Sequence record: MH355584.1
From: Escherichia phage vB_EcoM_JB75
Reading direction: 5' to 3' (one strand)
DNA: 64,000 nt
Position numbers and translations under genes: made by a program. Positions 56,938-61,782 of this stretch are shown one piece after another (position 1 is the stretch's first letter; each line of letters opens with the position of its first letter). The notes under the pieces were generated by a model. That model was not told the DNA's origin. It worked only from the letters and a program-made list of their open reading frames with translations, and made no database searches.

Positions 56938-57201
56938 ATGTTTAAAGTATATGGTTATGATAGCAACATTCATAAATGTGTGTATTGCGATAATGCAAAA
57001 CGTCTTTTGACCGTGAAGAAACAGCCGTTTGAATTTATCAACATTATGCCGGAAAAAGGTGTTTTTGATGATGAGAAAATTGCTGAGCTTCTGACTAAAC
57101 TAGGTCGTGATACTCAAATCGGCTTGACAATGCCCCAGGTATTTGCTCCTGATGGAAGTCATATTGGTGGATTTGACCAACTGCGAGAATATTTTAAATG
57201 A
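56938..57201 (+). CDS. nrdC: glutaredoxin/thioredoxin NrdC
   Basis: 87 aa; active site CVYC; matches recalled T4 NrdC. Confidence 0.9.
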   Translation: MFKVYGYDSNIHKCVYCDNAKRLLTVKKQPFEFINIMPEKGVFDDEKIAELLTKLGRDTQIGLTMPQVFAPDGSHIGGFDQLREYFK

Positions 57202-57413
57202 TGCTCGAAGGAACTGACTATATTCATGATTACCGCGGAAGCGCGGTATATGTAGGTGATGAAGTTGCAGTTTATTATGGGTATGGAACTTTGATGACAG
57301 CCAAGGTTATTCAAATTAAAAATAATCGTGCTAAACTCGAAGTTTATTATTCTAATGGTGAAAAGTCTATTTCTAAGTGGAAATACGGCGATTGTATGGT
57401 TAAATTGGGGTAA
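57198..57413 (+). CDS. hypothetical protein
   Basis: 71 aa coupled ORF. Confidence 0.5.
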   Translation: MMLEGTDYIHDYRGSAVYVGDEVAVYYGYGTLMTAKVIQIKNNRAKLEVYYSNGEKSISKWKYGDCMVKLG

Positions 57414-57415
57414 AT

Positions 57416-57586
57416 ATGATTTACGATATTAATGTATCAAGAACTCCGTCAATGGTTACTATTCCAGCCGAAGAACTAGATCGTCTTCAGAAAATTGAAG
57501 AGCTTCTTTGGGAAATTGAATCTGATTTGCCATCAGGATTAGAATCCTGGATTGATTATGAAGAACTTAATAAGCTTCGGGGTTAA
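57416..57586 (+). CDS. small hypothetical protein (not in ORF track, 56 aa)
   Basis: ATG at 57416 right after upstream stop. Confidence 0.35.
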   Translation: MIYDINVSRTPSMVTIPAEELDRLQKIEELLWEIESDLPSGLESWIDYEELNKLRG

Positions 57587-57708
57587 ACCTTGGTGGGCGG
57601 CTAGATGGGAAACTGTAGAGCCAGAGCCGGAAGAACCGGTTTACACTGATGAAGAAACAGTATATAATGAACCAACGATAAATGACTTAATTGATATGGA
57701 GATGGGAC

Positions 57709-58194
57709 ATGATTACAGTAGATAAGTGGTTTAGAATTAATCGTGTTGATACAGGGCTATGTAATTACTGGCCGGAACTTAGTGCAGGTACTGTCTTTAA
57801 AGTTCGTGAACTTGCAAAAGAATGTGAAGATGATATAGAACCTGATACTGGAATTATTGAAATTGAACTTTCCGACGGAAAGATTATTAACATCTATGAT
57901 AAGCCAATTACATACTGGTGTTTGTGGAATACTGAATCCGTTGAAAATGGCGAAATTGAAGAAGTTGTAGAGAGAACTAGCCAAGATGTTCAGAAGCCTA
58001 AAGCCGCTTTTCAAGGTGAACGTATTTCATACGCATTAGCTAAATTAGCTGCGCAAGAAAATAATGATGGCTATGAAGGTAACCTGATGCAAGCTGCCGC
58101 AGAGTACATTGAATGGCTTGAAACTCAAATTTCTTTTTCTGACCAAAAGATTCGGCAATATAAGCGATTGCATCAAATGTTTTACAATACTTGA
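57709..58194 (+). CDS. hypothetical protein (start uncertain)
   Basis: Track ORF from TTG 57691; ATG 57709 behind GGAGATGGG gives 161 aa. Confidence 0.5.
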   Translation: MITVDKWFRINRVDTGLCNYWPELSAGTVFKVRELAKECEDDIEPDTGIIEIELSDGKIINIYDKPITYWCLWNTESVENGEIEEVVERTSQDVQKPKAAFQGERISYALAKLAAQENNDGYEGNLMQAAAEYIEWLETQISFSDQKIRQYKRLHQMFYNT

Positions 58195-58407
58195 AAAAAC
58201 TCAAAATTCTTTTTCTGACAGGACATTTTAATGAAAACCGAATTGGTTTATACTGAAAAGTTAAATGGCGGTAAGGTTTGGAAACTTTTTATTAAAGGAC
58301 ATTCTACGGACCCTCATATGACCACTTGCGTAGGAACCTATTCTCGTCCTACTAAAAAGATGATTCGACAGTATAAACGATTGCATCGAATGTTTTACAA
58401 TACTTAA
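58124..58407 (+). repeat. local direct repeats (about 20 and 34 bp, two copies each) around the end of the 57709-58194 gene
   Basis: CTCAAATTTCTTTTTCTGAC (58124) vs CTCAAAATTCTTTTTCTGAC (58199); TATAAGCGATTGCATCAAATGTTTTACAATACTT (58160) vs TATAAACGATTGCATCGAATGTTTTACAATACTT (58374). Confidence 0.6.
58231..58407 (+). CDS. small ORF sharing a duplicated C-terminus with the preceding gene (not in ORF track, 58 aa)
   Basis: Ends KMIRQYKRLHRMFYNT, near-duplicate of KIRQYKRLHQMFYNT at 58150-58194. Confidence 0.35.
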   Translation: MKTELVYTEKLNGGKVWKLFIKGHSTDPHMTTCVGTYSRPTKKMIRQYKRLHRMFYNT

Positions 58408-58449
58408 AAATAATAAATACCCTTATCTATTTAAGGTAAGGGTTTTATT

Positions 58450-58923
58450 ATGTTATTGACTGGCAAATTATACAAAGAAGAAAAACAGAAATTTTATAAT
58501 GCACAAAACGGTAAATGCTTAATTTGCCAACGAGAACTAAATCCTGATGTTCAAGCTAATCACCTCGACCATGACCATGAATTAAATGGACCAAAAGCAG
58601 GAAAGATACGTGGATTGCTTTGTAATCTCTGCAATGCCGCAGAAGGTCAAATGAAGCATAAATTTAATCGTTCTGGCTTAAAGGGACAAGGTGTTGATTA
58701 TCTTGAATGGTTAGAAAATTTACTTACTTATTTAAAATCCGATTACACCCAAAATAATATTCACCCTAACTTTGTTGGAGATAAATCAAAGGAATTTTCT
58801 CGTTTAGGAAAAGAGGAAATGATGGCCGAGATGCTTCAAAGAGGATTTGAATATAATGAATCTGACACCAAAACACAGTTAATAGCTTCATTTAAGAAGC
58901 AGCTTAGAAAGAGTTTAAAATGA
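58450..58923 (+). CDS. 49: recombination endonuclease VII (Holliday junction resolvase)
   Basis: 157 aa; zinc-binding cysteines CLICQ...CNLC and HLDHDHELNG; matches recalled T4 gp49. Confidence 0.9.
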   Translation: MLLTGKLYKEEKQKFYNAQNGKCLICQRELNPDVQANHLDHDHELNGPKAGKIRGLLCNLCNAAEGQMKHKFNRSGLKGQGVDYLEWLENLLTYLKSDYTQNNIHPNFVGDKSKEFSRLGKEEMMAEMLQRGFEYNESDTKTQLIASFKKQLRKSLK

Positions 58924-59457
58924 CAATTGAAAAAGAAATTGAAGGATTGATTCATAAAACTAATAAAGACCTTTTAAACGAGAATGCTAATAAAGATTCT
59001 CGTGTTTTTCCAACTCAACGGGACCTTATGGCTGGTATTGTGTCTAAACACATTGCCAAAAATATGGTCCCGTCTTTTATTATGAAAGCGCATGAAAGCG
59101 GAATTATTCATTTCCATGATATTGATTATTCCCCTGCTCTTCCATTTACTAATTGCTGTTTAGTAGATTTAAAAGGAATGCTTGAGAACGGATTTAAGCT
59201 TGGTAATGCACAGATTGAAACTCCTAAATCAATTGGCGTTGCTACTGCAATTATGGCACAAATTACTGCACAGGTTGCTTCTCACCAATACGGCGGAACT
59301 ACATTTGCTAATGTCGATAAAGTACTTTCTCCTTATGTTAAACGCACCTACGCAAAACATATTGAGGATGCAGAAAAATGGCAAATCGCTGATGCGTTGA
59401 ATTATGCTCAATCTAAAACAGAAAAAGACGTATACGATGCATTCCAAGCTTATGAGT
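58920..59457 (+). CDS. nrdD: anaerobic ribonucleotide reductase NrdD, exon 1
   Basis: In-frame stop 59463-59465 lies just inside the predicted intron; exon end placed at the U of UAUGAGU that can pair with intron GCUCAU. Confidence 0.75.
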
Positions 59458-60481
59458 TAATTTAATTCAGGCTCATGTAAAACCGGTCTAAACGGGGAAC
59501 CTCTCTAGTAGACAATCCCGTGCTAAATGTTCTTTTGAACTAAATGCCTAACGACTAACCGTGATGAATGTAGCGGTGTAGAATAGAAGCTAATGCTATT
59601 CGAAACGGCCGGCATCGAAAGATGAAGATATAGTCTAATCTGCATGGCGACATGCAGCAGTCATCTTGTATAAATAAGATTATCTTATGAATACGAGGTG
59701 AAACAATGAAATGGATAAAAAGACGTTGTACTAAAATAAAAGATAAAGACGCATTTACATACTTAGTTAAGTTTTCTAATGGCGACATTTATATCGGTTA
59801 TAAAAAATTTAGAACAATTAAAAACAAGCCCACAAACTGGAAAACTTACACAACGTCATCTAAGTATATAAATGAACGCTTAAAAACTGATACACCTACT
59901 AAATGGATAATTTTAAAAACATTTGATAGTTATAAAGATGCATTAAAACATGAAGAAGAGGTCATACGTAAGTATTTTTATAGCAAAAAATGTTTAAATA
60001 AATCCATAGGCGGTAAAAAGTTTTATAAGCATCCGGATACTGAAGAACATATTCAAAAATTAAGAGATGCTCATAAGGGTAAAGTGTTATCCGAATCTCA
60101 TAAAAACAATATAAAATCTTCTGTAGCTGAATATTATGCTAAAAACGGAAGATCTAAGGAACATGTGCAAAATAATATCAATAGTCGAAAAAGTAAAAAA
60201 CAAGTATCGATAAAGCTTAAAAATAAAACTTTTAGAAGTTTTAAAAAAGCAGCGGAATATTTAAATTGCACTGAAAGTGAAGTCGAAACTCATCCTCTTG
60301 TTTTGAGTATTAAGACTACTATTCATAAAGTTCCTGAATATGTGGTTGTTGACGGTATTAAGTATACGTCTTATATAGAAGCAGCTAAAGCGCTAAATTT
60401 TCATCCTAGCACTATAAAAGAACGTTGCATATCTATGGACTATCCAAATTTTGTTGTTTCATATAAACGGGCATGAATTTG
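59458..60481 (+). mobile_element. group I self-splicing intron in nrdD (sunY-type) carrying a homing endonuclease ORF
   Basis: Interrupts the NrdD frame; 5' core 59470-59700 has P7-like GACUA/UAGUC; ORF occupies the 3' part; splice sites inferred from P1 pairing, terminal G and frame, +/- a few nt. Confidence 0.7.
59706..60476 (+). CDS. GIY-YIG homing endonuclease (I-TevII-like)
   Basis: 256 aa; GIY-YIG motifs GDIYIGYKK and second YxG block; lies inside the nrdD intron. Confidence 0.8.
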   Translation: MKWIKRRCTKIKDKDAFTYLVKFSNGDIYIGYKKFRTIKNKPTNWKTYTTSSKYINERLKTDTPTKWIILKTFDSYKDALKHEEEVIRKYFYSKKCLNKSIGGKKFYKHPDTEEHIQKLRDAHKGKVLSESHKNNIKSSVAEYYAKNGRSKEHVQNNINSRKSKKQVSIKLKNKTFRSFKKAAEYLNCTESEVETHPLVLSIKTTIHKVPEYVVVDGIKYTSYIEAAKALNFHPSTIKERCISMDYPNFVVSYKRA

Positions 60482-61782
60482 CGACTCATGCTGAATATAA
60501 TGATGAAGTAAATACACTTTTCAGCTCTAATGGACAAACGCCTTTTGTAACAATTACATTTGGTACGGGAACTGACTGGACTGAACGAATGATTCAGAAA
60601 GCAATTCTGAAAAATCGTATTAAAGGTCTTGGTCGTGATGGGATAACTCCTATTTTCCCTAAGCTTGTTATGTTTGTTGAAGAAGGTGTTAATCTTTATA
60701 AAGACGATCCGAACTATGATATTAAGCAGCTTGCTCTAGAGTGCGCAAGCAAAAGAATGTATCCTGATATTATTTCAGCTAAGAACAATAAAGCTATCAC
60801 CGGCTCATCTATTCCTGTTTCTCCAATGGGTTGCCGCAGTTTCTTGAGTGTGTGGAAAGATTCAACCGGTAATGAAATTCTTGATGGACGTAATAATCTT
60901 GGTGTTGTAACACTGAATCTTCCTCGTATCGCATTAGATTCTTATATTGGAACACAGTTCAATGAACAGAAATTTATCGAATTGTTCAATGAGCGAATGG
61001 ATTTATGTTTTGAAGCTTTGATGTGTAGAATTAGTTCCTTAAAAGGAGTTAAAGCTACTGTTGCTCCTATTCTTTATCAAGAAGGTGCATTCGGGGTTCG
61101 TCTTAAACCTGATGACGATATAATTGAGTTATTTAAAAACGGCAGAAGTTCAGTGTCTTTAGGATACATTGGTATTCACGAATTGAATATTCTTGTCGGT
61201 CGTGATATTGGACGAGAAATTTTAACTAAAATGAATGCTCATCTTAAACAGTGGACTGAAAGAACCGGATTTGCTTTTAGTTTATATTCGACTCCTGCTG
61301 AAAACCTTTGTTATCGCTTCTGTAAACTTGATACAGAAAAATATGGAAGTGTAAAAGATGTTACCGATAAAGGCTGGTACACTAACAGTTTCCATGTTTC
61401 AGTAGAAGAAAATATTACTCCGTTTGAAAAGATTTCTCGTGAAGCGCCATATCATTTCATTGCGACAGGTGGTCACATTTCTTATGTTGAACTTCCTGAT
61501 ATGAAAAATAACTTGAAAGGTCTTGAGGCCGTATGGGATTATGCTGCACAACATTTAGATTATTTTGGTGTTAACATGCCGGTAGATAAATGTTTTACAT
61601 GCGGAAGTACCCATGAAATGACTCCTACTGAAAACGGATTTGTTTGTTCTATTTGTGGAGAAACTGATCCTAAAAAGATGAATACCATAAGAAGAACGTG
61701 TGGTTATTTGGGAAATCCTAACGAACGCGGATTTAATCTCGGTAAAAATAAAGAAATCATGCATAGGGTTAAACACCAATGA
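60482..61782 (+). CDS. nrdD: anaerobic ribonucleotide reductase NrdD, exon 2
   Basis: Glycyl-radical motif RRTCGYLG near C-terminus; Cys-rich zinc site CFTCGS...CSICG. Confidence 0.8.

Follow-up and report, generated by a model that had tools for sequence, protein, structure and literature searches.

The pin to gene 49 interval

We examined the interval between pin and gene 49 in a 64,000-nucleotide stretch of DNA from Escherichia phage vB_EcoM_JB75 (MH355584.1), a T4-like phage of the genus Tequatrovirus. The whole stretch is referred to below as the window, and positions are those of the window. The local gene order is nrdC, 49.3, 49.2, 49.1, pin, ORF58, gene 49 and nrdD (Table 1). The gene pin encodes PinA, a predicted inhibitor of the host Lon protease, and ORF58 is a small open reading frame (ORF) of 58 amino acids (aa) whose 3' end resembles that of pin. 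The interval from 57600 to 58500 is matched by 700 phage records, one of which, Escherichia phage vB_EcoM-fFiEco06, is 99.7% identical to it.

Table 1. Genes and sequence elements between nrdC and nrdD in the window
Feature	Position	Strand	Description
nrdC	56938-57201		Glutaredoxin
Three small ORFs	between nrdC and pin		Counterparts of 49.3, 49.2 and 49.1
pin (PinA)	57709-58194	+	161 aa; predicted host Lon protease inhibitor; PF10465, phrog_2167; annotated pin in homologous phage records
pin body	57709-58146		Residues 1-146
pin acquired tail	58147-58191		Residues 147-161
pin stop codon	58192-58194		TGA
R1 short repeat	58121-58143	+	Inside pin; encodes ..ETQISFSD
R2 long repeat	58147-58198	+	Pin tail codons KIRQYKRLHQMFYNT, stop codon and A-run; derived from the 3' end of a DUF7279 gene
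Recombination junction TGAAAAAA	58192-58199	+	CTTGAAAA (after C-type pin) joined to AACTCAAA (inside B-type pin)
pin remnant	58197-58231	+	Non-coding, 35 nt; 3' end of an ancestral-type 148-aa pin; contains R1' (58197-58219)
Shine-Dalgarno-like AGGA	58220-58223	+	7 nt before the ORF58 ATG; putative ribosome-binding site
ORF58	58231-58407	+	58 aa; DUF7279 / phrog_3272 small protein
R2' long repeat	58357-58411	+	Native 3' end of ORF58 (KKMIRQYKRLHRMFYNT, TAA stop); donor-type copy of the pin tail
Hairpin	58419-58443	+	Stem of 10 pairs, -18.1 kcal/mol, z -4.83; overlaps the gene 49 ribosome-binding region
Gene 49	58450-58923	+	Recombination endonuclease VII; PF02945 (2.4e-21), PF09124 (1.5e-33)
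nrdD	starts 58920		

A first-pass annotation of this DNA had reported that the 3' end of pin is repeated about 215 bp downstream as the end of ORF58, and both repeats were found where they had been placed. The long repeat (D1) pairs 58149-58211 with 58362-58424 at 83% identity over 63 nt, with a start-to-start spacing of 213 bp; in its core, R2 and R2' (58149-58198 and 58362-58411, offset 213), 44 of 50 bases match. The short repeat (D2, consisting of R1 and R1') pairs 58121-58143 with 58197-58219 at 22 of 23 bases, with a spacing of 76. The elements follow one another in the order R1, R2, R1', ORF58 body, R2'. A short repeat had also been described as preceding each long copy. It does so directly for the first copy, but R1' precedes the start of ORF58 and lies 137 nt upstream of the second. 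The translations given for the two ends were accurate, pin terminating in ..SFSDQKIRQYKRLHQMFYNT and ORF58 in ..TKKMIRQYKRLHRMFYNT. The best ungapped direct-repeat score in 57600-58500 was 34; across 60 dinucleotide-preserving shuffles the score averaged 10.2 and never exceeded 14. That the repeat could be a sequencing or assembly artefact, a possibility the annotation had itself raised, is refuted: the identical architecture is present in more than 100 genomes sequenced and assembled independently in different laboratories, and the copies disagree at 6 of their 50 positions, unlike what a collapsed or duplicated read would produce. Comparison with related genomes recovered the 901-nt arrangement at 98% identity or more, over its full length, in dozens of independently sequenced phages, including RB32 and RB33.

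Origin of the pin tail

As judged by sequence comparison, ORF58 is a real, old and conserved gene under purifying selection. It matched PF23945 (DUF7279) over residues 7-56 (3e-17; 62.7 bits against a gathering cut-off of 24.5) and phrog_3272 over residues 1-58 (3.4e-34), and the family was found in 357 phage records by tblastn. ORF58 is a homolog of RB69ORF087c and also, according to a note in the JS98 record, of RB32 ORF078c. Like them it is a full-length family member, with the same conserved tail and the same place: homologs with this tail lie directly upstream of gene 49 in Tequatrovirus, Dhakavirus (JS98, VR5, dhabil and NC-G) and Mosigvirus (RB69ORF087c). The conserved tail of the homologs reads RPTKKMIRQ[YF]KR[LF]HRxFY, and the C-terminal helix RPTKKMIRQYKRLHRxFY is the most conserved part of ORF58. 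The ratio of non-synonymous to synonymous substitution rates (dN/dS) ranged from 0.04 to 0.34 in 36 pairwise comparisons, with dS reaching values above 2. In the one good AlphaFold model (predicted local distance difference test score, pLDDT, 81.7; the other four models were poor) three strands are followed by a helix of residues 42-56, and the piece transferred to pin would essentially be this C-terminal helix. When the model was searched against PDB folds, no match reached E ≤0.001 (best 0.27). The family is narrow, with about five true representatives at the 50% clustering level in an exhaustive profile search; long multi-stretch matches in the same search were rejected, as they look like repeat-protein noise. 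A scan of IMG/VR yielded 11 loci, and no DUF7279-like ORF other than ORF58 was found in the 64-kb window.

Pin is made of two parts by the same kind of evidence. It matched PF10465 (Inhibitor_I24) over residues 4-141 (2.3e-47, 160.8 bits, cut-off 27), and its residues 1-146 matched the 146-position profile phrog_2167 (9e-66), which ends at residue 146. Residues 147-161 match positions 44-58 of phrog_3272 and not the pin profile; no other part of pin matches the ORF58 family, and a profile built from ORF58 homologs matched pin only with a low score (21 bits). The locus occurs in four types, A to D, defined in the next section, and pins outside types A and C all lack the tail, whether in types B and D, in outgroup genera or in distant relatives. 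The RB69 pin ends in ..YLERRLS, the Dhakavirus pin fragments (JS98, VR5, dhabil and NC-G) in ..RFSDEAF, and three distant pins (P0048, P0049 and P0050) in ..FSSKSF, ..FSDRGF and ..FNAKSF, respectively. The DUF7279 genes downstream of the tail-less outgroup pins, on the other hand, all have the tail. The polarity of copying is directly visible in these comparisons: the tail is native to ORF58, and pin is the recipient.

The first-pass annotation had read the events the other way round, with a downstream duplication of the pin 3' end that closed a new, possibly untranslated, 58-aa ORF. The repeats do exist, and the tail is the only part common to both ORFs. However, ORF58 belongs to a Pfam and PHROG family found in several genera, its tail is present where pin has none, and the outgroup comparison refutes such an origin, which we regard as extremely improbable. 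The claim that a duplication created the second small ORF is incompatible with an ORF58 that is older, conserved and under purifying selection beside ancestral and outgroup pins without the tail. The term partial duplication is loosely correct provided that its direction is reversed, and the suggestion of a recombination scar was right, as the junction could be reconstructed from related phages. A paralogous partial duplication of pin was likewise rejected as the source of ORF58, since the tail is not native to pin and the ORF58 family is older than the fusion.

The borrowed tail has diverged from the family that supplied it. Residues that do not vary within the ORF58 family are substituted in the tails of pins (R46 by Q in T4; H52 by N in G8, slur03 and F1; R53 by Q in nearly all), and the tail haplotypes show about five non-synonymous and two synonymous differences. 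Because these family-invariant residues are replaced, the tail looks relaxed, and it appears to be a largely unconstrained appendage. T4 PinA is known to bind and inhibit the host Lon protease (Hilliard et al. 1998), and we infer the same activities for the window pin from its 90-96% identity to T4-type pins. It is an ortholog of T4 PinA (UniProt P07068; MEROPS/Pfam Inhibitor_I24, PF10465), equally 161 aa long and with the same fused tail as in T4 and T6, and no functional difference between the two is predicted. The reference 161-aa PinA is itself a chimera, and natural pins 148 aa or about 137 aa long do not have its final 15 residues. No published description of a pin::DUF7279 chimera was found in literature searches, whose coverage does not extend to Skorupski et al. 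1988.

Pin has also been broken up in some relatives. In JS98 (L006, 529-1004) pin is split into two ORFs whose order is reversed: orf78 resembles its C-terminal half (E 2e-10) and orf77 its N-terminal half (E 2e-4). VR5, dhabil and NC-G have kept only a 57-aa C-terminal half.

Locus types and the history of the fusion

The four types differ in the form of pin and in the presence of ORF58. Type A, that of the window, has the 161-aa pin, the remnant and ORF58. Type B (Sa45lw, JEP6 and G50) has a 148-aa pin ending in ..SFSDRAF, with its TAA stop overlapping the ORF58 ATG as TAATG. In type C (T4, T6 and G8) the 161-aa pin is followed directly by gene 49, without ORF58. Type D (HY03 and KRT47) has a 148-aa pin, and ORF58 has been removed between TTTTAAT and ACTTGAAA.

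The junction sequences can be read directly. In T4 the fusion junction TCTGACCGA/ATGATTCAG (here and below, a slash marks the point of joining) equals the B-type pin sequence TCTGACCGA(GCG) plus the ORF58 sequence (AAG)ATGATTCGG; in a longer reading, TCTGACCGA/ATGATTCAGCAA equals B-type TCTGACCGA(GCG TTT TAA) plus ORF58 from codon 44, (AAG)ATGATTCGGCAG. An in-frame fusion by deletion, TCTGACCGA/ATGATTC.., can be rebuilt from the adjacent parental genes with the frame kept, and B-type parents are extant (Sa45lw, JEP6 and G50). The variants of this junction are all of equal length: CGAATGATTCAG in T4, CAAATGATTCGG in SHFML-11, S2_01 and KK4, and CAAAAGATTCGG in the window and T6. Since they form an equal-length substitution series in which CAAATGATTCGG bridges T4 and the window, the fusion appears to have arisen once.

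A second junction follows the pin stop codon in the window. The tail of the window pin is identical to that of T6 through CTTGAAAA, after which comes AACTCAAAATTCTTTTTCTGACAGGACATTTTAATG, homologous to the last 31 nt of the B-type pin. Across this point T6 and T4 read CTTGAAAATAATAAATA, B-type pins GGCTTGAAACTCAAA and the window CTTGAAAAAACTCAAAA; phage F1 has one A fewer in the A-run. In the old pin frame the remnant reads TQNSFSDRTF followed by a TAA stop (58229-58231) that overlaps the ORF58 ATG, as it does in B-type phages, and it compares with the corresponding sequence of Sa45lw, JEP6 and G50 as GACCGAGCGTTTTAATG versus GACAGGACATTTTAATG. R1' and ORF58 are both closest to those of the B-type phage Sa45lw, ORF58 with 97% amino-acid identity. 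Copies of ORF58 hardly vary within type A, where 110 records show at least 99% identity, but are diverse within type B, which suggests that type A is the younger haplotype.

Types A and B also differ in the sequence 7 nt before the ORF58 ATG, which is AGGA, AAGG or AGGG in type A and GAGCG in type B. In type B, ORF58 appears to rely on the TAATG overlap with pin, and the AGGA-type motif is consistent with an independent ribosome-binding site gained by type A. The window ORF58 differs in this respect from the RB69ORF087c / RB32 ORF078c family, in that a dead remnant lies between it and pin, and a Shine-Dalgarno-like AGGA of its own takes the place of TAATG coupling.

We consider it likely that the junction of pin, DUF7279 and gene 49 in T-even phages records at least two recombination events, in the following steps. 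In the ancestral type B, a 148-aa pin ending in ..SFSDRAF would have been translationally coupled through TAATG to a 58-aa DUF7279 gene. Next, about 137 bp comprising the last pin codons and ORF58 codons 1-43 would have been deleted, leaving pin residues 1-146 to read in frame into the final 15 ORF58 codons and giving rise to the 161-aa PinA of type C (T4 and T6). Thirdly, an illegitimate exchange between type C and type B genomes would have joined a T6-like fused pin, in the A-run just past its stop codon, to a Sa45lw-like B-type segment that opens with the final 31 nt of the B-type pin. Such an exchange would have put ORF58 back downstream of the fused pin, left the 35-nt dead remnant with R1', and placed the two tail copies as direct repeats 213 bp apart, as in type A. 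In the fourth step, which would be continuing at present, the 50-bp tail copies recombine homologously, removing ORF58 precisely and regaining a T4-like locus.

Products of this last deletion exist among sequenced phages. The type C phage fPS-65 carries the R2 markers CAAAAG..CAA..AAG on the 5' side, followed by the R2' marker CGA and the TAA stop specific to type A. In KK4, also of type C, CAA is kept but the stop is TAA, which puts the crossover further 3'. Because the crossover points differ, fPS-65 and KK4 represent two independent 213-bp deletions between R2 and R2'. The 50-bp repeats that flank ORF58 thus appear to cause its loss, forming a deletion hotspot with natural chimeric products still extant. 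The corresponding product of R1 and R1', a 148-aa pin ending in ..DRTF next to ORF58, was not seen among the best-ranked matches.

Several points weigh against the history proposed above. We infer the order of the second and third steps, which is unproven; the region is a mosaic, and flanking polymorphisms do not settle the order of events. A B-type donor with the exact AGGACA version of the remnant was not among the best-ranked matches. The abundances of the four types (about 115 records of type A, including RB32 and RB33, 85 of type B, 235 of type C and 70 of type D) are estimates extrapolated from evenly spaced samples and identity bins. The structural model of pin (pLDDT 64, below 50 in the tail) is too poor to place the tail, and the uncoupling of type A ORF58 from pin, with translation from its own AGGA, is only the most likely reading of the sequence upstream of it. 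Type A might also have come first and been the source of all C types, having arisen when a tandem duplication in a B-type genome underwent internal deletion. In this account, which we think unlikely, an unequal exchange between two B-type genomes at CTTGAAA/A-run would have produced a 289-bp tandem duplication of the pin 3' end and ORF58. An in-frame deletion of the first ORF58 body would then have yielded type A, and recombination between R2 and R2' the C types. The same junction sequence is predicted by this route, the deletion from A to C that it needs demonstrably occurs (fPS-65 and KK4), and a fused tail common to A and C with a single origin fits it. However, it requires three events rather than the two of the favored path and involves a 289-bp tandem repeat as an unstable intermediate. 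Most C types, moreover, carry the B-like TGA stop and downstream sequence and not the A-type TAA, and the near-invariance of type A ORF58 compared with the diversity of C tails and of B-type ORF58 makes type A look younger. We therefore retain the path from type B through the type C fusion to type A.

Fusion and loss in related phages

Rearrangements involving the same two genes were also seen outside Tequatrovirus. In a Mosigvirus-like contig (L030; Logan SRR20302901, 2501-2926), compared with the RB69 locus (L005, 464-1066), pin ends in ..EYLERR/FHRDFYNVY. Here a deletion between ACGTTT microhomologies has independently linked pin, in frame, to the nine 3'-terminal codons of an RB69ORF087c-type gene. 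Two ENA metagenome assemblies (L031, 2501-3076; L032, 1510-2085) encode a 191-aa protein in which a DUF7279 paralog (..HRNFYRGY) is joined in frame to the N-terminus of pin; the fused paralog is of the upstream RB69ORF089c type, and the downstream DUF7279 gene has been cleanly deleted. Such a second DUF7279 paralog lies upstream of pin in Mosigvirus; RB69ORF089c itself (L005, 346-462) appears frameshifted at an A-run. In another locus (L020; 911-1081 and 1497-1622) it is the downstream DUF7279 copy that is frameshifted, unlike in RB69. Escherichia phage ST0, a Mosigvirus (L038, 1001-1171), has no pin and a single DUF7279 gene, composed of the body of the upstream paralog and an 087c tail (..HRNFY/NVY). 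Its chimeric make-up implies that pin was lost when the two DUF7279 tails recombined. In the Salmonella phage S16, a Gelderlandvirus (L037; 1001-1165 and 1530-1697), a DUF7279-like gene is accompanied by a second small ORF with a similar KPTKAQIRNRKKWARTYW tail and there is no pin nearby, so the DUF7279 family is not tied to pin in all genera.

Tail-mediated fusion and deletion appear to be general at the pin-DUF7279 locus and to recur in Mosigvirus. Short-homology and repeat-mediated recombination, leading to deletions, duplications and gene fusions in T4-type genomes, has been reviewed by Petrov et al. 2010 (PMC2993671). The events described here resemble those mechanisms, with breakpoints at microhomologies of 1-7 bp (A-run, ACGTTT and TTTTAAT) and direct repeats of about 50 bp resolved by homologous recombination. 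What is different here is that a full natural series (B, C, A, D and secondary C) survives at this locus, with each step readable. The mechanism as such is ordinary phage recombination and nothing new, and the genes are already annotated and in Pfam.

We also considered whether the tail is a selected functional module, namely an amphipathic, aromatic DUF7279 helix that binds Lon, as a degron mimic, or PinA, and that has been captured repeatedly for better Lon targeting. In favor of this idea, in-frame tail fusions arose twice independently (the T4 type and L030), a full-length N-terminal DUF7279-pin fusion occurs in two metagenomes, and DUF7279 genes lie on both sides of pin in Mosigvirus. The tail, ..RLHRMFYNT, also loosely resembles the Sul20 degron of SulA, ..KIHSNLYH, through the pattern H-x-x-[LF]-Y, a likeness of only a few residues. 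In Sul20 the critical C-terminal residues Tyr19 and His20 contact the N-domain of Lon. Nevertheless, the genes occur apart, as pin without the tail in type D and L031 and as DUF7279 without pin in ST0 and S16. The family-invariant residues are not kept in pin tails, and the tail is a packed helix in the ORF58 model whereas Sul20 is a free coil. Selection for the tail as a module is improbable in light of these points, and we hold it similarly doubtful that DUF7279 and PinA pair functionally against host Lon or proteostasis, with the DUF7279 C-terminal helix as a portable Lon- or PinA-binding module. If they did, T4 PinA would owe part of its behavior to a DUF7279 tail, and the fusions (T4 type, L030, and L031 and L032) would constitute Rosetta-stone evidence.

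Two further explanations for the repeats were rejected. Mobile cassettes of the promoter-early stem-loop (PeSL) kind are said to have been described in T4-type phages by Arbiol and colleagues in 2010. The locus resembles these cassettes in having a small ORF between direct repeats in a plastic early region, but differs in that its repeats are the coding 3' ends of ORF58 itself and of the neighboring gene. No promoter-like or terminator-like site and no stem-loop was found between pin and ORF58 (58195-58230), and on these grounds a PeSL or other cassette with its own promoter was discarded. A regulatory role of the repeat at the DNA level was also discarded: neither type D phages nor L031 have the repeat at all, yet both retain the hairpin and promoter region of gene 49, for which the repeat is thus not essential.

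Implications for PinA and for annotation

The T4 PinA of 161 aa that has been used in all the Lon-inhibition biochemistry is a chimeric protein, which calls for caution in work on PinA and Lon and at the same time offers an opportunity. In about 150 sequenced relatives Pin is 148 aa long and lacks the 15-residue tail, and these proteins represent a natural truncation series for mapping the Lon-binding determinant. For annotation, the tail should not be counted as part of the Pin family, and ORF58 should be labeled DUF7279. The locus keeps every intermediate of fusion, re-acquisition and repeat-mediated loss, and it provides a clean case of the gain, loss and cannibalization of small genes in T-even phages.

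Neighboring features

Downstream of ORF58, a late-promoter-like AATAAATA precedes the gene 49 hairpin, and both consist of invariant alignment columns, the same in all four locus types. Since the hairpin is unchanged throughout, all breakpoints of the rearrangements would lie upstream of it. The gene 49 hairpin reportedly has a regulatory role in T4, as Barth and colleagues are said to have described in 1988.

Further downstream, the nrdD frame (58920-60476, + strand) ends after 181 aa at 59465. A 256-aa ORF with GIY-YIG (SegE-like) and NUMOD1 domains lies 3' of this stop, at 59706-60476. The stop and the GIY-YIG ORF together resemble the T4 nrdD intron with its homing endonuclease; a search of 57000-61500 against Rfam gave no match at the gathering score, and none for an intron at nrdD. 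Upstream of pin, a near-consensus sigma-70-type promoter lies at 57640-57668 on the + strand (TTTACA, a spacer of 17 nt and TATAAT; 11 of 12 positions). Its position, within the 49.1/49.2 region and about 40 nt before pin, makes it a plausible early promoter for pin and ORF58.

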